This document shows positions 12,817 to 59,719 of a stretch of 64,000 nt of DNA, piece by piece. The number at the start of each line of letters is the position of its first letter. The first letter of the stretch is position 1. The position numbers and the translations under genes were made by a program. Under the pieces are notes generated by a model. It had not been told where the DNA came from. It saw only the letters and a program-made list of their open reading frames with translations, and ran no database searches. Origin of the DNA: Candidatus Saganbacteria bacterium (GTDB lineage Bacteria > Margulisbacteria > WOR-1 > O2-12-FULL-45-9); NCBI GenBank assembly GCA_016932255.1, contig JAFGDE010000015.1, forward strand, positions 29,694 through 93,693, written 5' to 3'.

Positions 12817-13859
12817 TTATCTCCGCCTCGGCCCGACCGGCCACTCTTGCTCTGAACTTCAAGATATCTCTTTAGATTATCGATAAAGAAACAATCATGG
12901 ATACAGTAGCACTTCGTAATTCTGCGCCTCATCTCTTCGGCAGCTTTTGATCGCCAAACCTTGGGAAAACAAAGATCATGATCACGCACATTACCAACAG
13001 GCCGAGTGAACTCACAAAGCGCCACCGCGCCATCAGCATAAAGGATCCCCTGATCCTGGCCCGCTGAACAGCTAGAAAAGATCGGCTTGCCGGTCTTGAG
13101 CATCTTTATCTGATAAGTCAACCGCTTGAACAGGTGTGACCTATCCCGATATTTCCCCTTTTTCCGGAAATACCTGTCCATCTTCTCAAGTTTTTTTATC
13201 GGCGGCAATTTCAACTTGGTCGGCTTGAGGTCGGCAATCGTTTCTTCATTCAGGCCCCATATCGTCCCTGGTATCTGGCGCATTATCATGAGATGCTGCT
13301 CCACTCCGATCTCTTTAGCCAGATACTCCGATAACTCCTCCATCTCATCGATGTTGCCCTCATGGACAACCGTCAAGACAGCAACACCTAGATTCGTCGA
13401 CTGCCGCTGCAGTTCTTTCATCAGAGAAACCGTCTCAAGCGCAGCGCTGAACGATCCCGGAACAGATCGAATGCTATCATGCGTGGGAGCAAATCCATCA
13501 ATCGAGACCTGCACTAATATCGGACAGGCACAATCATCAACGATCTTGGACATTTGCCGGGCAATCTCTCCGGACATCAAACCATTAGTACAAATAAAGA
13601 TCTCCTTGGAACCATTGAGCTTATAGAACGCTTTTGCGATCTGCGGCAGATCCTCCCTGAGGAAAGGCTCGCCGCCGGTCAGACTTAATAGCTCCAAGGG
13701 CGCCTGAAACGAAGCTGCTATTTTTTTGATCTCCGATAGGGACAATTCTCTGTTCGAACGTGTCTTGTTCGTTGGCACAAAGCAGTGCTTGCATTTCAGG
13801 TTGCACCTATCGGTCACAAAAAAACCCAATTTTTTGAGGATTACGTCCATTTTATTCAC
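12813..13859 (-). CDS. radical SAM protein with C-terminal SPASM/twitch-like Cys cluster
   Basis: CNLKCKHC near the N-terminus, LTGGEPFL. C-terminal: SSCSAGQDQGILYADGAVALC...GNV...CYCIHDC. Confidence 0.85.
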   Translation of the reverse strand: MNKMDVILKKLGFFVTDRCNLKCKHCFVPTNKTRSNRELSLSEIKKIAASFQAPLELLSLTGGEPFLREDLPQIAKAFYKLNGSKEIFICTNGLMSGEIARQMSKIVDDCACPILVQVSIDGFAPTHDSIRSVPGSFSAALETVSLMKELQRQSTNLGVAVLTVVHEGNIDEMEELSEYLAKEIGVEQHLMIMRQIPGTIWGLNEETIADLKPTKLKLPPIKKLEKMDRYFRKKGKYRDRSHLFKRLTYQIKMLKTGKPIFSSCSAGQDQGILYADGAVALCEFTRPVGNVRDHDLCFPKVWRSKAAEEMRRRITKCYCIHDCFFIDNLKRYLEVQSKSGRSGRGGDK

Positions 13860-15216
13860 GCAATAACCTTACAAATTCCCTGGTATTAGAACCATGGGCC
13901 TTATAATAATCCATGAAATCCATGGGCCTATCTTTGATATTGTACGCCTCGGGATCAAGATGCATTGGCGCAGCCGGTTCAATTAGGACATCAAGGTGAA
14001 ATATCTGGTCAACATGCCTATATCTGCCTTTTATGAATCGAATCATCTTCCTGGTCATTCGTTTTGCGCTCTCGGGCTGGCCAGGCATTTCCTTTATGAA
14101 ATACAGGATCGAACGTATCCCTTTAGCTTCAAAATAATCCAGGGCTCGGTAAAATTGATCGTTCGAATAGTAGTGACCCTTGATCTTCTTCCTGAATGAT
14201 TCCGAGCCGCTTTCCGGTGAAAGAGATATATCACTGCCAGGCAGGAAGGTGCGCTCAAACTCGTCGATCAATCTCTTTGAGGGGATGCCCCATGATTCAA
14301 AATCAGCATATATTTTTAGCCCTGCCCGGCGTATACGCCGGAACAATTCAATATAATAACCTGGTCTTCCGGGACAGGGGTCGAAACAGAAATGAAAGAT
14401 CCTGATCTTATAAGTACGGTAATATTTTTGAATATCATGGACTACGCTGTTTATGTCGCGAAAGATCACTTCCTTCCTGCCAAAAAGCATTTTTTGACTT
14501 GAGCGTGACCCGCCGCAGTATGCGCAATCTACGCTGCATCCCCGGCCCAGAGGCACCACAAAGGACCTAACGGGATGCCCGTCAAGCAGGGAGCCGCCGG
14601 GGGACAAAGCCAGTGCATCCAAATAGTTGTCATATTTGTAGATCAGATCAAAATCAGTAAAAGAGAAAGAGTCATTGTCCTTCTTACTAACGACATAGGA
14701 CAGCTTGTTGACAATTATTTTGCCTGAGCTATTTCTCCAGGCGAGATTCGGCACAGAAGCCAAGTCATCAGAACCTCTTTTGCTCTTCAGCAACAGCTCA
14801 TACAGGGGCCGCTCACCATCGCCCCGGATCACGGCATCGACAAAATGGAACCTGGTCAAGATCTGTTCATAAAAGAACGTGGCAGAAAAGCCCCCCATGA
14901 CCACCCTGGCATTAGGTTTTAGCCTTTTTATCATTTCCACTACTTTTATGGTGTGATAGGTTTGATAATGCCACTGCAACGAAACCGCTATTAAAGATAC
15001 ATCGGTCAAGCTGTTCAAATATTCTTTGAGCGAAAAGGCAGGGTCCTGCCTGACCTCGCTTCCTACATTCAGTATCTCAACGCGACATTGCCGCTTCTTT
15101 AAATAAGAGGCCATGGAAAAGAAACCGTGAGGCAGCTTGAGAACGGTTGGTTCCTTGCGAGAGAACCTTGGAATATGCAGCAGAAGACAATCGATCTTGC
15201 GTTTTCTTTTGGTCAT
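13852..15216 (-). CDS. B12-binding-domain radical SAM protein
   Basis: GCSVDCAYCGG after an N-domain with DCLLLHIP and VVMGGFSATF. I prefer ATG 15216 (MTKRKRKIDCLLL) over the track start 15288. Confidence 0.8.
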   Translation of the reverse strand: MTKRKRKIDCLLLHIPRFSRKEPTVLKLPHGFFSMASYLKKRQCRVEILNVGSEVRQDPAFSLKEYLNSLTDVSLIAVSLQWHYQTYHTIKVVEMIKRLKPNARVVMGGFSATFFYEQILTRFHFVDAVIRGDGERPLYELLLKSKRGSDDLASVPNLAWRNSSGKIIVNKLSYVVSKKDNDSFSFTDFDLIYKYDNYLDALALSPGGSLLDGHPVRSFVVPLGRGCSVDCAYCGGSRSSQKMLFGRKEVIFRDINSVVHDIQKYYRTYKIRIFHFCFDPCPGRPGYYIELFRRIRRAGLKIYADFESWGIPSKRLIDEFERTFLPGSDISLSPESGSESFRKKIKGHYYSNDQFYRALDYFEAKGIRSILYFIKEMPGQPESAKRMTRKMIRFIKGRYRHVDQIFHLDVLIEPAAPMHLDPEAYNIKDRPMDFMDYYKAHGSNTREFVRLLRE

Positions 15217-15337
15217 AAATATATCTTTTCTCGGGTGAATGCCTAACGCCTTATAGATTATATCACACTCAATAGACCATAAAAACAACGACAGACCCTC
15301 GCTTTCGCCCGATATTTAAGGGAGAGCGCTCACTGGT

Positions 15338-15366: not shown

Positions 15367-15398
15367 GTTCACAGCAAAATGAATGCCAGGCAAGTATC

Positions 15399-22222: not shown

Positions 22223-23749
22223 TCACCTCCCTTTTCTGTCCAATGTCCTGTATTGGGTCGCCTCAGCCACATGAGCAGAAGTAATAAGGTTAGACCCCTC
22301 CAGATCGGCAATGGTTCTGGCCAGTTTGAGTATCTTGTCATAAGCCCGGGCCGAGAGTTTGAGGTGAACAATGGCCGATTTGATCATTTTTTCAGCTTCT
22401 TTGTCCAAGCCGCAGAATTGCCTGATCTGCTTCGGGGTCATAAAGGCATTGGCAAAGGTCGGGGTATCGCGGAAACGCTCGCTCTGGACCTGCCGGGCCT
22501 TGATCACCCTTTGCCTGATCAAAGCCGAAGGTTCGCCGACCGGCAGACTGGCAACTTCTTCAGTGGAGAGCCGGGCAACCTCTAGCTGGATATCTATCCT
22601 GTCCAGCAAAGGCTCAGAGAGCTTGCGCCAATAGCGCTGGACCTGGGATGGCGAACAGACGCAGGATCGCTCCTTATCATAGAGCCGGCCGCAGGGACAG
22701 GGGTTCATGGCTGCCAGCAACATAAATCGCGCCGGATAGGTCAAGGCGGCCTGGGCCCGGGAGATCGTGACCTTGCCATCCTCAAGTGGCTGGCGCAGTA
22801 CCTCAAGCACTGCCCTGTCAAATTCCGGGAACTCGTCAAGAAAAAGGACCCCGCGGTGAGCCAAGCTGACCTCACCTGGCCTGGGAATGCGGCCGCCGCC
22901 GACAATACCGATGTCTGAAGTCGTATGATGCGGCGAACGGAACGGCCGCTGATTAAGCAAACTCCCCTTGCCGCTGAGCAGGCCAGCCACGGAATAAAGG
23001 CGCGTTACTTCCAACGCTTCGGTTAATGTTAACGGCGGCAGGATGCCGGCCAATCTCCGCGCCAGCATGGTCTTGCCTGAACCGGGAGAACCGACCAATA
23101 GCAGGTTGTGGCCACCGGCGGCCGCGACCTCAAGCGCTCTTTTAACATGTCCCTGGCCTTTGACATCAGCCAGGTCAAGCAAATGTTCCGGCAAATGCCC
23201 GAGCAGGGCCTGGACATCGACCCGGTGAGGCTCGATCTCTATCTTGCCTGAGAGAAAATCGGCGGCCTGCCGCAGGGAATCGATCGGAATGACCTCAACA
23301 TCCTGTATCAAAGCGGCTTCATCCGCATTCTGGCGCGGCACCAACACCTGTTTGACCCGGCGGCTCAGCGACTGACAGATAGCCAACACTCCGTTGACAG
23401 CCCTGACCCCTCCGTCAAGCGACAACTCTCCCAGGATAACCTGGCCGTTGAGTTTTTCCCGGCCGATCTGTTCTGAGACCATCAGTATGGCCAGCGCGAT
23501 CGGCAGGTCATATAATGGGCCTTCTTTTTTTGTGTCAGCCGGCGCCAGATTGATCGTGAAATAGCCTGGCGGGGATTCAAAACCAGAATTTTCAATGGCT
23601 GACCTGACCCGATCGCGCGATTCCCTGATCGCTGCGTCCGGCAAACCGACGATCGACTGCCCCGGCAAACCCCGGCTTGAATCAACTTCGACATCGATCT
23701 GATAAGCTTCGAGCCCTAGGACCGCGGCGCTGGTGATCTTAACGAGCAT
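22223..23749 (-). CDS. comM: YifB/ComM family Mg-chelatase-like AAA+ ATPase
   Basis: N-terminal Lon-like domain (AAVLGLEAYQIDVEVD), Walker A GSPGSGKTMLA, LFLDEFPEF, C-terminal Mg_chelatase_C region. Confidence 0.9.
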   Translation of the reverse strand: MLVKITSAAVLGLEAYQIDVEVDSSRGLPGQSIVGLPDAAIRESRDRVRSAIENSGFESPPGYFTINLAPADTKKEGPLYDLPIALAILMVSEQIGREKLNGQVILGELSLDGGVRAVNGVLAICQSLSRRVKQVLVPRQNADEAALIQDVEVIPIDSLRQAADFLSGKIEIEPHRVDVQALLGHLPEHLLDLADVKGQGHVKRALEVAAAGGHNLLLVGSPGSGKTMLARRLAGILPPLTLTEALEVTRLYSVAGLLSGKGSLLNQRPFRSPHHTTSDIGIVGGGRIPRPGEVSLAHRGVLFLDEFPEFDRAVLEVLRQPLEDGKVTISRAQAALTYPARFMLLAAMNPCPCGRLYDKERSCVCSPSQVQRYWRKLSEPLLDRIDIQLEVARLSTEEVASLPVGEPSALIRQRVIKARQVQSERFRDTPTFANAFMTPKQIRQFCGLDKEAEKMIKSAIVHLKLSARAYDKILKLARTIADLEGSNLITSAHVAEATQYRTLDRKGR

Positions 23750-23757
23750 TTTCCCCT

Positions 23758-24126
23758 CTACCTGATAAAGAAAGCATTGCGGTAATGTTCAACGACCTTT
23801 TGCCCGTTGCTCTTGCGGAAAATAGTCAGCACATCAAAGCGGCAGTTGACCGAATGGAGCATCCTTTTAATGAGGTAGGTACGCGCCGCATGAATGATGC
23901 TGTCACGCTTGCTTTTACGTACTGCCGCAACAGGCGACCCGTAGGATCTGAAAGAATAATTCTTGACCTCGACAAAGACCAGCATCTCCCGGTCCCAGAC
24001 GATCAAGTCTATCTCACCCTGCTGGGAACGGAAGTTCCTGGTTTCGATGCGGTAGCCAATATCTTTTAAGTAATCTTCTGCCAGCGCTTCGCCTCTGCGT
24101 CCGCTCATGTAACTTTTCATACCCAT
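23758..24126 (-). CDS. yraN: YraN family (UPF0102) endonuclease-like protein
   Basis: GEALAEDYLKDIGYRIETRNFRSQQGEIDLIVWDREMLVFVEVK. The track start 24144 is a TTG inside repeat copy A. ATG 24126, 24120 or 24108 are more likely. Confidence 0.8.
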   Translation of the reverse strand: MGMKSYMSGRRGEALAEDYLKDIGYRIETRNFRSQQGEIDLIVWDREMLVFVEVKNYSFRSYGSPVAAVRKSKRDSIIHAARTYLIKRMLHSVNCRFDVLTIFRKSNGQKVVEHYRNAFFIR

Positions 24127-24129
24127 GAT

Positions 24130-24276
24130 GGAACAAGGCAGCAAGGTTATTGCCAGCTAATGGGTTCTGGGGACTAGGTTCTGGGTTCTATACGTTTTTA
24201 TTATAAGAAATAGATTTTTTAAATAATCCCAGAACCCACTCACCCAGAACCTGCCTGCTGGCAGGCAGGCCTAGAA
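24130..24276. repeat. composite inverted-repeat element, copy A (GGGTTCTGGG / CCCAGAACCC arms, A/T core)
   Basis: ggaacaaggcagcaaggttattgccag...gggttctggggactaggttctgggttcta-[A/T core with tttttattataag]-atcccagaacccactcacccagaacc. It is homologous to copies at 52500..52625 and, inverted, 59071..59199. Confidence 0.8.
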
Positions 24277-24317
24277 CAAAAAAGTGTCTCAATCCCGCCA
24301 CCCGCGGTCAATTTGCT

Positions 24318-24375: not shown

Positions 24376-24648
24376 TTAGTTGAGCTGGTCGAACAAGTTC
24401 TGCCCCATGGAGAACTTGGCGACGTTGCGGGCCTTGATCGTCATGGTCTTGCCGGTCTGCGGGTTGCGGCCTGGGCGCGCTTTGCGCTTCACCTTTTTCC
24501 ACGTACCGAAACCAACGAGCCTGACCTCCTTGCCCTTTTTCAAAGAACTGCTGATATTATCAAAGGTCGAATCCAGCATGGCCATGACCTTTGATTTAGG
24601 CATCTTTGTCTGTTTGGAGACCTGGTTGCACAACTCCTGTTTGTTCAT
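24376..24648 (-). CDS. hup: HU/IHF family DNA-binding protein
   Basis: MNKQEL...VRLVGFGTWKKVKRKARPGRNPQTGKTMTIKARNVAKF; 90 aa. Confidence 0.9.
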   Translation of the reverse strand: MNKQELCNQVSKQTKMPKSKVMAMLDSTFDNISSSLKKGKEVRLVGFGTWKKVKRKARPGRNPQTGKTMTIKARNVAKFSMGQNLFDQLN

Positions 24649-50984: not shown

Positions 50985-52139
50985 TCAGATTACGTGCGGC
51001 GTGATCATGAAGACTATCTCTGTTTTCGCTTGTTCTACTGTCCGGTTCGAAAATATAATGTTCAGGATCGGCACTTGGCCGATTATCGGCACACGGGAAA
51101 CATTTACCCGCTCGGTCTCTGAGAGCAATCCTCCGATCACGATCGTCTCGCCATCCCTGACCCGAAGGGTGGCAGCCGCGTTGCGCGTGCTGATGACCGG
51201 GAATTCCCCGGCTGCCGTACTTTTCCATTGTGATATCGAAGAGACTTCCGGCTGCAGCAACGCGGTAATATCCCCCTGCTCATTGATCCGTGGTACGATA
51301 CGCAACCTGACCCCGGCGTTAAGATAATCGACCGTCCACTGGGTCGTGCTTGAACCTGAGCTGACCGGAACAGCATAAGGCACCCGGCTGCCGATATTGA
51401 TAACGGCTTCATGTCCGTCCAGCGTGGCGATCCTCGGCCTGGCCACCACTTTAGCCTTGCCCTTGCTTAACAAAGCGTTGAGGCTGGTGACCAGATCGCC
51501 CGCGCGGTGCAGCTCGCCCCGGTCGTTGTCGGTCACGAACTTGACCGTGCCGGGATCACTGCCGTAGGTAACGCCCAGGCGCAGGGCATCGTCTTCACTG
51601 ATCTCCAAGACCTGGCTCTCGATCAGGACCTGCGGCGTTGGCCTGTCCAGTTGTTCGACAAGCGCAAGACAATTTCTTAGTGTCCGGCCTTCAGCCTGCA
51701 GCACCAGCCTTGATTCCGAGCCTCCGGCACTGGCCTTGACCTGCGGCAGGACCTGGCGCAGCACTTCTGCCAGGCGCGAGGCTTCATAATAGCGCAGGCT
51801 GACCGCTTCGCATGACCCATCACAGCCTGTGGCCATTGGAGCAGCCGCGGCATTGACCAGTAAAGTCCCGTTCTGCCTGCTCCAGACCAGGCCATTGGCG
51901 TTCAGGACCTGCTCCAAGGCTGCCTCAGCCGGGACCTCAGCCAGACGCAGGGAAGTCCGCCTGTTCTGCAAGGCCGCTGTATCACCGCTGACAATGACAT
52001 TGAGCCCTGCCTGTCTGGCCAGGCAGCGGATAACATCGATCACTGCCGCATCATTGAAATTCGCCCCGGATATTAGTTCGGCCTGCGCGTTCAGCCATAA
52101 GCCAAACAATAAGACTAGACAACCTAGAACACGCTTCAC
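50985..52139 (-). CDS. short secretin (GspD/PilQ family) outer-membrane channel
   Basis: Signal peptide. N-terminal STN-like FNDAAVIDVIRCLARQAGLNVIV. C-terminal secretin motif IVIGGLLSE...VSRVPIIGQVPILNIIFSN...TEIVFMITPHVI. Confidence 0.8.
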   Translation of the reverse strand: MKRVLGCLVLLFGLWLNAQAELISGANFNDAAVIDVIRCLARQAGLNVIVSGDTAALQNRRTSLRLAEVPAEAALEQVLNANGLVWSRQNGTLLVNAAAAPMATGCDGSCEAVSLRYYEASRLAEVLRQVLPQVKASAGGSESRLVLQAEGRTLRNCLALVEQLDRPTPQVLIESQVLEISEDDALRLGVTYGSDPGTVKFVTDNDRGELHRAGDLVTSLNALLSKGKAKVVARPRIATLDGHEAVINIGSRVPYAVPVSSGSSTTQWTVDYLNAGVRLRIVPRINEQGDITALLQPEVSSISQWKSTAAGEFPVISTRNAAATLRVRDGETIVIGGLLSETERVNVSRVPIIGQVPILNIIFSNRTVEQAKTEIVFMITPHVI

Positions 52140-52495
52140 GGCCGTTCCTCCAGCTTTTTAAGTTCAAGGCTATTTGCCCCAATGGACACGACCAGATAGC
52201 CGGCCGCTTCATCCCCCAGCATCAGACACAGGCCCCGCCCGCCGAATTCAAGTAAAGCCAACGGTTCTCCACCTCTGACCACCCCAGCCAACCGGGCGTA
52301 TTTGTCACCCAGCAGCACAGGGCCCGCGTCCAGTTTTAAAACGATGTTTTGGGCCTGGATCTTCTCATCGATCAGATAGAGAGGCTGCCGCTCGCCTGAT
52401 TCCGAGGTCCGGGAAGTCCTGAGCGGGATCTCAGCTCCGGCTGTCAGGGACAAACACAGACAGAAAAATGAACATAGGATTGTTCGTAAATACAT
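52136..52495 (-). CDS. hypothetical secreted protein upstream of the secretin (possible pilot/PilP-like)
   Basis: 119 aa, signal-like N-terminus CSFFCLCLSLTAGAE, 4-nt overlap with the secretin gene. Confidence 0.45.
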   Translation of the reverse strand: MYLRTILCSFFCLCLSLTAGAEIPLRTSRTSESGERQPLYLIDEKIQAQNIVLKLDAGPVLLGDKYARLAGVVRGGEPLALLEFGGRGLCLMLGDEAAGYLVVSIGANSLELKKLEERP

Positions 52496-52499
52496 GACA

Positions 52500-52625
52500 G
52501 GGCAAATGAAGCAATTTTATTGCCAGGGGGATCGGGTTCTGGGTTCTAGGTTCTTGGTTCTATGATTTTTATTATAAGATCAAATAAATATAAAATAATC
52601 CCAGAACCCAGTTGCTAGAACCCGA
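52500..52625. repeat. composite inverted-repeat element, copy B
   Basis: gggcaaatgaagcaattttattgccagggggatcgggttctgggttctaggttcttggttcta-[A/T core with tttttattataag]-atcccagaacccagttgctagaacccga. Same orientation as copy A. Confidence 0.8.
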
Positions 52626-52642
52626 TATCTAAAATGTCGCAG

Positions 52643-53635
52643 TTACGACAACGCGCCGAAGCGGAAAAGCAGAAAGAGCGACACAAGATAAAGCACGATC
52701 GTCAGGATCGAGGTCCAGTGTTTTTTGACCTGCCGCTTCATCGTGTAGTAAAGCAAGCCCATCAGGACGGCCCCGCTTAAAGCAGCAAAGATCATGGCCG
52801 GATTGACCGAGGAATAAAGCGAAGCCGGCCGGTAGAATATATCAGCGATAAAAACGAGCGAGACATCAAAAACATTGCTGCCGACCATATTGCCGACCGC
52901 CATGCTGAAGTGACCCAACCTCAGCGCTGAAAAAGAGACCGTCAGCTCAGGCAGTGTTGTGGCCAGGGCCAGGAAAAGGACGCCGACAAAGGTCTGCCCC
53001 CAACCCATCACTGCCACTATTTCATTGCCGATAAAAGGCAGCCAGCTGCCGGCAACGACGACGATAACGGCTGACAGGGCAAAGAAGAAATAGACCTGCG
53101 CTGATGACACATGTTCATAACCGGCGGAAAAAGCTTCCGCAGCACGCTCTCTCTGGCCGTAAATAACCCATAAAGATAATAGATAAATCCCCAGGATAAT
53201 AAAGGAATAAACCGATATTCCTGCAAATGAAGGGTCAAAAGCAACACGGCCCAAGGACAAGGACATTGCAACGATCAAGAGGATCAATACGCCAAAAATG
53301 GTCGAAGCCAGGTTGCTGGGTTTAGGCCGGATAAAGATGGTCCCTTTGCCTCTTAAGCCCCAAATCAGGTCAAGCAGGGCCAGAGAGAACATGTTCATCA
53401 TGCAGGCCCCCAGCAGATCTCCTGCCGCCAGGTCCGGCACTAGGGCAACCGCAGAGGCTGACACAGCCGTAGCCAATTCAGGCAATGAAGTGATCGCCGC
53501 CAGAAGCACCAGGCCGATCCAGGCGCGGCACAGGCCGGTCTTTTCGGCAATGGCATCGCCGTACTGGGATAGCCGGGACCCGGCCAGATAAATGATGACG
53601 GCGCAAAGGCTGAATTTTAACCAAACGATCAGCAT
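52643..53635 (-). CDS. Ca2+/cation antiporter (CaCA, YrbG-like) family membrane protein
   Basis: Two alpha-repeats: ITSLPELATAVSA / GDLLGACMMNMF and ATTLPELTVSFSA / GNMVGSNVFDV. Confidence 0.8.
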   Translation of the reverse strand: MLIVWLKFSLCAVIIYLAGSRLSQYGDAIAEKTGLCRAWIGLVLLAAITSLPELATAVSASAVALVPDLAAGDLLGACMMNMFSLALLDLIWGLRGKGTIFIRPKPSNLASTIFGVLILLIVAMSLSLGRVAFDPSFAGISVYSFIILGIYLLSLWVIYGQRERAAEAFSAGYEHVSSAQVYFFFALSAVIVVVAGSWLPFIGNEIVAVMGWGQTFVGVLFLALATTLPELTVSFSALRLGHFSMAVGNMVGSNVFDVSLVFIADIFYRPASLYSSVNPAMIFAALSGAVLMGLLYYTMKRQVKKHWTSILTIVLYLVSLFLLFRFGALS

Positions 53636-57778: not shown

Positions 57779-59058
57779 TGGGCAAGACCACTGGCGGTGA
57801 GCGCGGTCGCACCATCGCGGAAAAGATCCTTTCCTCTCACTCAGGAAAGAACGCTAAGGCTGGGGATATCGTTATCGCTGAATTAGATTACATGATCGGC
57901 CAGGACGGCACTTCCGGCGTGGCTATCGATTCATTCCGCAAACTCGGCGTAGCTAAGGTCAAGAATCCTGATAGGATGGCCATCATCATTGACCATAGTT
58001 CCCCTTCGCCCAACAAAGGCGTTTCCGACATCCACCAGAAGATCAGGGAATTTGTCAAAGAACAGGGCTTCACCCTTTACGACATCGGCTGCGGCGTCTG
58101 TCATCAGATCACTCCGGAACAGGGCCATGCCGTGCCGGGAGATCTGATCATCGGCGCTGATTCCCACACCTGCACCTACGGCGCGATCAACGCTTTCTCC
58201 ACCGGCATCGGCTCGACCGATCTGGCCGCGGGCTGGGCCTCGGGCCAGCTCTGGTTCAAGGTGCCGGAGACCATGAAGGTCATATATAGCGGCAAACTGA
58301 CCAAGGGCATTTTTTCCAAGGACCTGGTGCTCAAGCTGATCGGCGATATCACTGCTGACGGCGCTACTTACATGGCCCTGGAGATCTACGGCCAGGCGAT
58401 CGCGGACATGTCGGTTGACGCCCGCTTCACCATTTCGAACATGGCTATCGAGTGCGGCGCCAAGACCGGCCTGATGGAAGCAGATAAGAAGACCCTGGAC
58501 TGGGTCAAGGCCCATTCTAAGAGAAAGCCCAACCCCGTAGTCGCGGACAAGGACGCCAAGTATGCCAAGACAGTTGAGATAGATATCAATAAATTAGAAC
58601 CGCAGATCGCCAAGCCCCACACTGTCGATAACGTTGTGCCTATCTCCAGGTTGGGCAATGTTCCTGTTGCCCAGGGCTTGATCGGCACCTGCACCAACGG
58701 CCGGCTGGAAGACTTCCGCATCGCAGCTCAGATCCTCAAAGGCAAGAAAGTCAAACCTGGCTGCCGCTTGATCCTGGCCCCGGCATCGAAACAGATCCTT
58801 TTGGACATGATCAAAGAAGGGATATATCAGTCGTTGCTGGAATCCGGCGCTATTGCCGTGACCCCTGGCTGCGGCCCGTGCGTTGGCACCCACAACGGCG
58901 TGCCGTCCGACGGCGAGAACGTTATCTCGACAGCCAACCGCAACTTCAAAGGCCGCATGGGCAACCCCAACGCTTTTATTTACCTGGGCTCGCCCGCCAC
59001 GGTCGCCGCGTCGATGATCGAAGGGAAAATAGCCGACCCGAGGAAGTATCTGTCGTGA
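57778..59058 (+). CDS. leuC: 3-isopropylmalate / homoaconitate dehydratase large subunit (short archaeal-type LeuC/HacA)
   Basis: Aconitase-family motifs: IGADSHTCTYGA, GTCTNGRLEDF, TPGCGPCVG, NRNFKGRMG. No small-subunit gene is adjacent. Confidence 0.88.
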   Translation: MGKTTGGERGRTIAEKILSSHSGKNAKAGDIVIAELDYMIGQDGTSGVAIDSFRKLGVAKVKNPDRMAIIIDHSSPSPNKGVSDIHQKIREFVKEQGFTLYDIGCGVCHQITPEQGHAVPGDLIIGADSHTCTYGAINAFSTGIGSTDLAAGWASGQLWFKVPETMKVIYSGKLTKGIFSKDLVLKLIGDITADGATYMALEIYGQAIADMSVDARFTISNMAIECGAKTGLMEADKKTLDWVKAHSKRKPNPVVADKDAKYAKTVEIDINKLEPQIAKPHTVDNVVPISRLGNVPVAQGLIGTCTNGRLEDFRIAAQILKGKKVKPGCRLILAPASKQILLDMIKEGIYQSLLESGAIAVTPGCGPCVGTHNGVPSDGENVISTANRNFKGRMGNPNAFIYLGSPATVAASMIEGKIADPRKYLS

Positions 59059-59070
59059 TCGCGACGCTCT

Positions 59071-59199
59071 TGGGTCCTAGGTTCTAGCAACTGGGTTCTG
59101 GGATATTTATATCTTTATCTGTTTTTATAAAAATATCCTAGAACCTAGTACCCAATACCCAGAACCCGATTCCCTGGCAATAAGATTGCTGCTTGTTCC
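59071..59199. repeat. composite inverted-repeat element, copy C (inverted relative to A and B)
   Basis: The reverse complement reads ggaacaagcagcaatcttattgccagggaatcgggttctgggtattgggtactaggttcta-[A/T core]-atcccagaacccagttgctagaacctaggaccca. This is collinear with copy B. Confidence 0.8.
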
Positions 59200-59212: not shown

Positions 59213-59719
59213 GTGAATTTTTACATCACTACTCAACACATCGAACAGATTATCTACCTGATCAGAGGGCAAAAAGTTATACTTGATCGGGATCTAGCTG
59301 TATTATACGGGGTTTCAACTAGGCGGCTCAATGAGCAGGTTAAAAGAAATATTGAGCGTTTCCCTGACGACTTCATGTTTTCCCTGACAAGACAAGAAAT
59401 ATCAAGCATATCGCAAATTGCGACATCCTCGCTGAAGTTCTCAAAGAACGTCAATGCCTTCACAGAAAACGGTGTTGCCATGTTATCTTCTGTCTTGAAG
59501 AGTAAAAGAGCCGTTCAGGTTAACATACAGATCATGCGTACTTTTGCTAAATTGCGGCAAATGCTTTCTTCCCACAAAGAGTTACGGGAAAAGCTTGAGA
59601 TCATGGAGCACAAATATGATAAGCAATTCAGGGTCGTCTTTGAGGCGATCAGGTCAATGATCAAGATAAAAGAAAAGAAAAAGCCGATCGGTTTTCTGTC
59701 GGACAAGCAAGACCACTAA
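59213..59719 (+). CDS. ORF6N-domain protein (KilA-N-related, typical of mobile elements/prophages)
   Basis: IYLIRGQKVILDRDLAVLYGVSTRRLNEQVKRNIERFPDDFMFSLTRQE. The track start (TTG 59186) lies inside repeat copy C. GTG 59213 is a guess. Confidence 0.65.
   Translation: MNFYITTQHIEQIIYLIRGQKVILDRDLAVLYGVSTRRLNEQVKRNIERFPDDFMFSLTRQEISSISQIATSSLKFSKNVNAFTENGVAMLSSVLKSKRAVQVNIQIMRTFAKLRQMLSSHKELREKLEIMEHKYDKQFRVVFEAIRSMIKIKEKKKPIGFLSDKQDH

Follow-up and report, generated by a model that had tools for sequence, protein, structure and literature searches.

We analysed a window of 64,000 nucleotides (positions 29694-93693 of contig C25) in the genome of a Candidatus Saganbacteria bacterium (Margulisiibacteriota; 1.67 Mb, 31 contigs, 53.6% G+C; hereafter G000, with C numbers for its contigs). 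Within this window, a composite inverted-repeat element occurs three times, upstream of yraN-comM, of a pilot-secretin gene pair and of an ORF6N-domain gene. Our results favour the reading that these copies are complete control regions of a sigma-54-dependent, competence-type regulon, with the inverted arms forming a hairpin-prone spacer, similar to a MITE (a miniature transposable element with inverted repeats), between an activator site and the promoter. We put the probability of this reading, which was reached by sequence comparison, at roughly 0.7.

Composite layout of the three copies

The copies lie at 24130..24276 (A), 52500..52625 (B) and 59071..59199 (C), where the original prediction had placed them, and they align over ~130 columns when compared with MAFFT in the gene-facing orientation. 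The layout described there, a distal arm, an A/T core, a proximal arm and CTGGCAATAAnnTTGCT, was recovered in the alignment, and a repeat search agrees. When at most one mismatch was allowed, the arm sequence CCCAGAACCC was counted 11 times in the window, where 4.7 occurrences would be expected; nine of the 11 fall within the three copies. A conserved 18-bp palindrome lies outside the originally outlined spans, at 24284-24301, 52634-52651 and 59050-59067. The parts of each copy and the genes downstream are as follows.

24284..24301 (-): copy A upstream palindrome, candidate activator site or upstream activating sequence (UAS), GTGGCGGGATTGAGACAC; 20.5 bits by position weight matrix (PWM), 146 nt upstream of TGG
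24226..24277 (-): copy A distal heptamer arm with nested GC palindrome TGCCTGCTGGCAGGCAGGC (24252-24270); from repeats and folding
24192..24225 (-): copy A A/T-rich core, including TTATAATAA; from the alignment
24162..24191 (-): copy A proximal heptamer arm, pairing with the distal arm; hairpin dG -27.4 kcal/mol, z -5.9
24140..24155 (-): copy A predicted sigma-54 -24/-12 promoter TGGCAATAACCTTGCT; kept in 27/27 relatives with a readable yraN upstream region
22223..24126 (-): yraN (UPF0102, 23758-24126) and comM (22223-23749), by Pfam; ATG at 24124-24126, 13 nt past TTGCT
52634..52651 (-): copy B upstream palindrome TTGTCGTAACTGCGACAT; overlaps the TAA stop (52643-52645) that ends the Na/Ca-exchanger gene upstream of it
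52598..52626 (-): copy B distal heptamer arm; from repeats
52564..52597 (-): copy B A/T-rich core; from the alignment
52531..52563 (-): copy B proximal heptamer arm, with GGTTCTN repeated four times in tandem (+ strand); hairpin z -4.5
52510..52525 (-): copy B predicted sigma-54 promoter TGGCAATAAAATTGCT; motif match
50985..52495 (-): 119-aa "pilot" gene (52136-52495, without a Pfam match), followed by the secretin gene (50985-52139, Pfam Secretin); ATG at 52493-52495, 14 nt past TTGCT
59050..59067 (+): copy C upstream palindrome CTGTCGTGATCGCGACGC; highest score by PWM (25.0 bits); overlaps the TGA stop (59056-59058) of an aconitase-family gene
59072..59104 (+): copy C distal heptamer arm; from repeats
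59105..59134 (+): copy C A/T-rich core; from the alignment
59135..59170 (+): copy C proximal heptamer arm; hairpin z -4.6
59175..59190 (+): copy C predicted sigma-54 promoter TGGCAATAAGATTGCT; motif match
59222..59719 (+): ORF6N-domain gene, probable GTG start at 59222; Pfam ORF6N 4.5e-31

Since the stop codons of the genes upstream of copies B and C lie inside the palindrome, the whole intergenic region at these loci can be regarded as regulatory DNA. The element had been described as belonging to no recognised family, and an Rfam scan of the window likewise gave 0 matches at the gathering threshold.

The suggested genome-wide search was run with an nhmmer profile built from six copies. It returned seven full copies on four contigs of G000, and the genome also holds two decayed ones, so that the count of three holds for the window only. 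Each full copy ends 7-22 nt before a sigma-54 box, and in six of the seven the proximal arm stands 7-9 nt from the -24 box. The common polarity toward the downstream gene, correct for the window, extends to 6/7 copies genome-wide; at ssb the arm-core-arm part is inverted and scores 100.7 bits on the opposite strand versus 50.1 on the promoter strand. Below these, at 41 bits or less, the search picked up plain heptamer hairpins and one hairpin with a short core next to a sigma-70-like promoter. At comEA and pilB the layout is the same, with decayed arms and a retained palindrome and promoter.

Predicted sigma-54 promoters and their start codons

The stretch CTGGCAATAAnnTTGCT had been taken for a small GCAA/TTGC hairpin. 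It reads instead as a sigma-54 promoter, with GG and GC exactly 10 nt apart and a fit to TGGCAC-N5-TTGCW. The motif TGG[CT]AAT[AG]ANNTTGCT is present at all three window copies and at 15 genome sites. A looser regular expression matched 38 sites in G000, half of which (19/38) lie outside open reading frames (ORFs; outside the window our gene calls are crude ORF calls), and nearly all of these 19 read TGGYAATRAnnTTGCT and are aimed at a gene shortly downstream. We compared G000 with 30 relatives of the same order, all from other genera (31 genomes in total, labelled G011, G013, G016, G024 and so on). The strict 16-mer occurs 2-20 times in each of the 31 genomes, while the reversed control occurs 0-1 times.

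The matching machinery is encoded as well. RpoN was identified in a 448-aa ORF at C24:114469-115812 (PF04552, 137.6 bits), and rpoN was detected in 28 of the 31 genomes, including 16/16 of the high-quality ones; Synechococcus elongatus, the sole cyanobacterial control genome, gave no rpoN match. Three AAA+ activators (PF00158, 247-255 bits) carry a readable GAFTGA or GSFTGA, and a fourth paralogue lacks GAFTGA. The classical sigma-54 targets amt-glnB and glnA have the box in G000, as do glnA in G013 and amt in G024. In G000 and the relatives, the sites are upstream of genes, co-oriented with them and conserved at orthologous genes. Binding of the box by the sigma-54 holoenzyme and a single regulon of DNA-uptake genes are both strongly supported by sequence.

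The position of the start codons is also distinctive. In six operons of G000 the ATG stands 11-14 nt past TTGCT (yraN 13, pilot 14, dprA 11, comEA 11, pilC 11 and pilB 14 nt), and none of the six has a Shine-Dalgarno sequence. This spacing is 11-15 nt at yraN in all 27 relatives with a readable promoter and likewise at comEA, pilB, pilot and pilC in G011, G024 and G016; ordinary leaders are found at ssb, topA, ORF6N, amt and glnA. Since sigma-54 transcription starts ~12 nt past the GC, leaders of 0-4 nt are predicted for the six operons, from which we infer transcripts that are leaderless or nearly so. The start spacing also means that the two TTG "start codons" of the ORF track (24144 and 59186), which do lie inside the repeat as had been pointed out, are the TTG of the TTGCT box, that is, part of the -12 box, and are wrong as starts.

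Two further observations concern the box and rpoN. The two "free" bases of the box are uniform within a genome, mostly CC in G005, AA in G010 and GA in G004, which hints at concerted evolution of the regulon promoters. A conserved cluster at C24:110887-115812 consists of rpoN, a REC-type activator, a 157-aa gene, a sigma-54 box (C24:112510-112525), a small gene and the paralogue without GAFTGA. A box is found near rpoN in several relatives (G005, G009, G015), and in G011, G013 and G024 it follows the 3' end of the activator and precedes the small gene; this arrangement suggests a sigma-54 feedback loop.

Gene content of the predicted regulon

All full copies stand directly upstream of a coherent set of DNA-uptake and recombination genes. 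The original proposal of a shared promoter/operator defining a small regulon is thus borne out in outline, although its parts had been mis-assigned. The targets in G000 are listed below.

Copy A promoter: yraN (UPF0102) - comM
Copy B promoter: 119-aa gene - secretin
Copy C promoter: ORF6N
C19:60025: dprA
C22:135546: T2SSF/pilC - pilin
C24:27591: T2SSE/pilB
C4:21152: comEA - comEC
C31:20381: ssb
C25:147581: topA
C17:40936: ORF6N
C26:17949: rimO ... cinA
Two further sites: amt-glnB and glnA

Here topA and rimO were named by reading N-terminal sequences, and the second ORF6N gene (C17) by its resemblance to that of copy C; the other downstream families were confirmed by Pfam (UPF0102, ComM-type Mg_chelatase, Secretin, ORF6N, ComEA, ComEC, DprA, T2SSF, pilin, T2SSE, SSB and CinA). 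The relatives have much the same targets: ORF6N (six genes), yraN, ssb and comEA in G013; comEA, yraN, pilot, topA, pilC and ORF6N in G011; ssb, comEA, pilB, pilot, topA and ORF6N in G024 and G016. The box at dprA is found in some genomes only. Across this order-level clade, a core natural-transformation gene set is thus predicted to be under one promoter type. A sigma-54 regulon of this kind would hold essentially the whole natural-transformation machinery, which suggests that Saganbacteria are inducibly competent and would give an uncultured phylum, sibling of Cyanobacteria, a testable circuit, with a narrowly defined sigma-54 promoter consensus as well as a candidate activator and site. Among the relatives, ORF6N-domain genes are the most numerous targets, and four-helix proteins resembling those of 23S rRNA intervening sequences are frequent targets in G013, G024 and G016.

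Known competence regulons depend on Sxy/TfoX with CRP-S sites in Haemophilus and Vibrio, and on ComK or sigma-X in Gram-positives. The predicted regulon shares with them dprA, comM, ssb, comEA/comEC and type IV pilus genes as well as the use of one promoter type, and it differs in that each operon has its own sigma-54 promoter and candidate activator site. To our knowledge, a separate sigma-54 promoter at every competence operon, several with leaderless mRNA, is an unusual case, and sigma-54 regulons of Saganbacteria or Margulisbacteria were not the subject of any paper in the literature collection that we searched. In Ralstonia, rpoN1 may act through pilus genes. One study reports rpoN1 as needed for natural competence in Ralstonia, together with twitching motility (PMC4371752).

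The upstream palindrome and a candidate activator

Just past the distal arm of every copy lies the 18-bp palindrome, with the consensus GTGTCGTGATCGCGACAC of the TGT-N10-ACA type, usually followed by Ts. A PWM whose training set did not contain the pilB site placed it 118-150 nt upstream of TGG at nine promoters, including pilB (distances are counted from the first base of the site to the TGG of the -24 box). At three G000 promoters without arms, it lies only 36-48 nt from TGG, an arrangement that we call the short form, and the amt and glnA promoters are without it. Variants of the left half in G000 (ssb and copy A) are uncompensated on the right, which favours a protein site over a stem.

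The best candidate for such a protein is a REC-AAA+-HTH activator encoded at C22:123524-124891, which has orthologues in nearly all relatives. The half-site differs between lineages, being TGTCG in most of family f1, TGGCG or TGACG in family f2 and TGACC in G013, and the predicted recognition helix of the C22-type activator differs with it.

Helix RT[ST]L[LIV][TS][RK]: half-site TGTCG / CGTCG
Helix RS[ST]LNS[KR]: half-site TGGCG / TGACG
Helix RTSLNNR (G013): half-site TGACC

As phylogeny confounds this covariation outside G013, we would give about even odds that the C22 activator binds the palindrome. Its gene is preceded by a sigma-54 box in at least seven relatives (G004, G028, G017, G008, G002, G020 and G015), and in at least four of these (G008, G017, G020, G028) by a palindrome as well, an arrangement that implies positive autoregulation. 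The activator adjacent to rpoN is disfavoured as the regulator, as its helix HRNTL is constant (G000, G011, G013, G024) while the palindrome varies; the promoter downstream of it has TGCACA-type sites. A GAF-type activator lies beside NrpR-like and gdhA-like genes (N-termini read) and is a candidate nitrogen regulator.

We do not favour the palindrome as a plain terminator. Its stems are short (4-6 bp), within a genome its sequence is conserved as well as its pairing, the left-half changes are uncompensated, and a strong terminator is already present upstream of copy A. The palindrome might still serve both as an activator site and as a weak terminator.

The arm-core-arm spacer

The spacer measures ~95-110 bp and has an A/T-rich core between two arms in inverted orientation, each a tandem array of heptamers (GGTTCT[A/G] on one side, AGAACC[C/T] on the other). 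As single-stranded DNA, the three window spacers fold into hairpins with dG of -27.4, -17.1 and -18.0 kcal/mol and z scores of -5.9, -4.5 and -4.6. Terminal inverted repeats, a short non-coding core and dispersed copies are all present, as in a MITE. The earlier suggestion of a mobile, promoter-bearing MITE holds in part: the arm-core-arm insert resembles a MITE, but the promoter is ancestral and not carried by the insert. No target-site duplication was seen by eye at the flanks of the seven copies; ATCG/CGAT at copy B merely extends the inverted repeat.

The heptamers are not confined to these promoters. In G000, 25 clusters contain at least three heptamer-derived hexamers; ~15-18 clusters are hairpin-only or other heptamer groups, some inside ORFs. 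The kinds of cluster include the composite copies, compact hairpins centred on GGGATCC, arrays broken by the palindrome GCCTGCCTGCCGGCAGGCAGGC and arrays in ORFs; the GGGATCC centre of the compact hairpins is the junction at which the composites hold the A/T core. The arms are thus not specific to the promoter element.

In a blastn comparison of the element with the 30 relatives, the promoter end alone matched, with no arm or core. At yraN, the relatives could be sorted into three states. In nine genomes, drawn from both families, an A/T-centred inverted repeat of 95-166 nt separates the palindrome from the promoter, with z from -2.2 to -6.6 in the six that could be scored; about ten have a 31-41-nt gap and no hairpin; and five have no palindrome. 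The arm units at yraN are unrelated across lineages (GGTTCTR, CAACTAA/ACAACAA and CGAATAT). Long forms in G011 occur at comEA, yraN, pilot, topA and pilC, genes at which G000 has them too, mostly with CAACTAA-type arms, while G013 has a single long form with GGTGAT-type arms and G024 has one at yraN alone. The cores share TTATWATAA across genera even where the arms differ. From these comparisons, the insert appears to be optional and its arm sequence free, with the inverted symmetry, the A/T centre and the location being kept. Orthologous promoters without the insert were seen only in other genera, and in a metagenome scan with YraN for close relatives, the best hit had 60% identity.

An origin of the heptamers from RAYT-type transposases was considered and set aside. 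In a search that covered Y1 transposases, G000 has two such genes, whose flanks are other hairpins and not heptamers. Immediately before one of these two IS200/RAYT-like genes (C16:21335-21679) lies the GC palindrome CCTGCCTGCCGGCAGGCAGG, which recurs almost unchanged within the distal arms of copy A (24252-24270) and of the pilC copy. On the flanks of the other gene (C14:37897-38244) are CCCCACA/TGTGGGG hairpins in a REPtron-like arrangement. A heptamer array with a nested GC palindrome is also inserted, without a shift of frame, at C10:2919-2966 in an ORF that resembles leucyl-tRNA synthetase in the residues on either side.

Proposed mechanism and rival explanations

In the mechanism that we propose, a bacterial enhancer-binding protein, for which the C22 REC-AAA+-HTH activator is the best candidate, would bind the 18-bp palindrome and contact the promoter by DNA looping. 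The arm-core-arm spacer would be lodged between the activator site and the promoter, acting as neither a promoter nor a sequence-specific operator. Sigma-54 RNA polymerase would bind the -24/-12 box TGGYAATRAnnTTGCT and, in the six operons whose start codon lies 11-14 nt past TTGCT, would produce a leaderless or near-leaderless transcript. Since sigma-54 activators act at a distance by looping, an insert at this position would be tolerated. Looping might be helped by a bend in the A/T centre, formed either by the DNA itself or with one of G000's two HU-family proteins. The spacer may be merely tolerated, or it may contribute through an A/T bend, a cruciform that restores the short spacing or insulation from read-through. 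Genome-specific hairpin repeats have settled here inside predicted enhancer-type promoters, and their inverted symmetry is kept while their sequence is replaced; this is relevant to the coexistence of repeats with activation from a distance where genomes are very compact.

Several observations weigh against this proposal. The covariation of helix and palindrome is confounded by phylogeny, with an independent change in G013 only. Short forms place the centre of the palindrome only ~60-75 nt before the start, a small distance for a looping activator, and five relatives have the yraN promoter without the palindrome. The palindrome often comes with a T-run and overlaps or abuts the upstream stop, and could be a weak terminator. 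The helical phasing between palindrome and promoter is suggestive only (nine long forms, R 0.55, Rayleigh p ~0.06, best periods 10.5-11.4). By eye, cores A, B, C and ssb contain no full match to the E. coli consensus WATCAANNNNTTR for integration host factor (IHF). Moreover, tolerance by itself does not account for seven full copies in ~12 promoters, and a further process is needed, whether targeted insertion, conversion among promoters with both flanks in common, or selection.

The alternatives differ mainly in the role they give to the arms and core. The sigma-54 promoter and the palindrome could stand as described while the arm-core-arm is a selfish insert without a role, a MITE-like or slippage-generated hairpin that spread by recombination between shared flanks and persists in almost the sole dispensable DNA. 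This deserves serious consideration, though we think it rather unlikely. It would account for the short forms without a spacer (G004, G003, G013, G024 and others), the turnover of arm sequence between genera, the inverted copy at ssb and the presence of heptamers in ORFs and plain hairpins. The intergenic regions are also full, from an upstream stop in the palindrome to an ATG at the predicted start: at six promoters the upstream stop lies inside or at most 9 nt from the palindrome, and these regions are otherwise fully occupied. However, a neutral insert would hardly be expected to place all seven full A/T-core copies in ~12 palindrome-bearing promoters among ~1500 intergenic regions, to recur with the same TTATWATAA core motif across genera despite differing arms, or to occupy the same genes in G000 and G011. 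An effect at the RNA level, in which the inverted repeat in read-through transcripts is terminator-like or cleaved by RNase III, so that the competence genes would be expressed only when the sigma-54 promoter is active, is less probable still, although it may add to a role at the DNA level. The hairpins are stable, and at 6-7 of the nine long-form promoters a co-directional upstream gene ends -8 to +9 nt from the palindrome, without a further terminator. In Neisseria, RNase III cuts the RNA hairpins that Correia elements form (PMC2649163, PMC2229807). Yet no T-run follows the proximal arm, the strong hup terminator already lies upstream of copy A, the upstream gene is divergent at topA and ssb (by a crude gene call), and the short-form relatives have no hairpin.

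A more speculative possibility, which we consider improbable, is that the spacer is a structural switch selected at competence promoters. In relaxed B-form DNA it would keep the activator site ~125-150 bp away from the sigma-54 promoter; cruciform extrusion of the A/T-centred palindrome under negative supercoiling, or folding during replication or DNA uptake, would restore the short-form spacing of 25-45 bp. If true, DNA topology would gate a largely leaderless sigma-54 natural-transformation regulon conserved across Saganbacteria, and the arms would remain able to pair as conversion between regulon promoters replaces their sequence. The two roles given to the element in the original prediction fare worse. 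That the arms, GGGTTCTGGG/CCCAGAACCC, are binding sites of the regulator of the regulon is very unlikely: they are symmetric around the core and fixed at 7-9 nt from the -24 box in 6/7 copies, but the same heptamers occur in the ~15-18 other clusters, including in-frame ORF inserts and unrelated hairpins, the orthologous promoters of other genera have arm units of unrelated sequence or lack arms, and at comEA and pilB the arms have decayed while the palindrome and promoter are kept. A mobile MITE that carries a sigma-70-type promoter in its core and supplies the genes before which it lands is highly improbable. The sequence cTTATAAT does face the gene in 6/7 copies, and Correia elements can create promoters (PMC2649163). 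In copy A, the only copy scanned with the sigma-70 consensus, the core has no -35/-10 pair; the ssb copy is inverted, and relatives without the element keep the -24/-12 box and its start spacing. The TATAAT also misfits starts that lie 11-15 nt past TTGCT, as transcripts from it would reach starts ~70 nt away without a Shine-Dalgarno sequence and would translate poorly. It is probably not a promoter.

Comparison with known promoters and repeat elements

The nifH promoter of Klebsiella has a NifA UAS of the form TGT-N10-ACA, an IHF site and a -24/-12 element, and glnAp2 with NtrC is comparable. The promoters described here resemble both in the GG-N10-GC core, the palindromic upstream site (literally TGT-N10-ACA in G000), the A/T-rich DNA between the two, the GAFTGA AAA+ activators and the presence of glnA and amt among the targets. 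They differ in the core TGGYAATRAnnTTGCT, the DNA-uptake targets, the predicted leaderless transcripts and the spacer of inverted heptamer repeats, and many relatives have the activator site 24-48 nt from the -24 box.

Among repeat elements, the Correia elements (CREE/NEMIS) of Neisseria are ~100-155 bp long, with terminal inverted repeats and, in the long form, an IHF-binding core (PMC2649163, PMC2229807). Situated upstream of genes, they can change gene expression, their RNA folds into hairpins, and their host is naturally transformable (PMC2649163, PMC2229807). The spacer is similar in its inverted repeats around a core and its position upstream of genes. In contrast to Correia elements, it has no sequence similarity to them and no target-site duplication, its arms are heptamers shared with other G000 repeats, its copies fall within one sigma-54 promoter class, and it does not create the promoter. 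BIME-1/RIP/RIB elements of E. coli consist of two inverted REP sequences around an IHF site and are found at the 3' ends of operons, and they are not known to be linked to a regulon. The likeness here is an inverted pair of genome-wide short repeats around a central A/T-rich stretch, while the spacer lies upstream within one regulon, shares no sequence with them and lacks the E. coli IHF consensus. The spacer is therefore an analogue, and not a member, of the Correia and BIME-1/RIP elements.

Cyanobacteria are said to carry STRR heptamer repeats with nested small dispersed repeats, reportedly described by Mazel in 1990 and Elhai in 2008. Their units include CCCCAGT, TTGGTCA and CAACAGT. Tandem 7-nt units, hairpins and nested small palindromes are found in both cases, and the host phylum is sibling to Cyanobacteria; the unit here is GGTTCTR, and the resemblance is an analogy only. 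We know of no link of STRR to sigma-54 promoters.

Neighbouring features

The order hup (24376-24648, -), terminator, yraN is kept at most of the yraN loci read across the order, and in G000 comM comes after yraN. Five genomes have the sigma-54 box immediately next to the hup terminator. A fourth sigma-54-like box of the window, TGGCATTCATTTTGCT (15373-15388, -), lies 85 nt upstream of the ORF 13852-15288 and has neither an upstream palindrome nor heptamer arms. A second inverted-repeat family is located directly downstream of three short-form promoters, at C29:50100-50181 (-), C29:52817-52930 (+) and C4:46380-46480 (+). It is built of GAATGCR heptamers around an AT-rich centre with TTATTATAATG, and is a candidate for a sigma-54-driven structured RNA or for another hairpin repeat.

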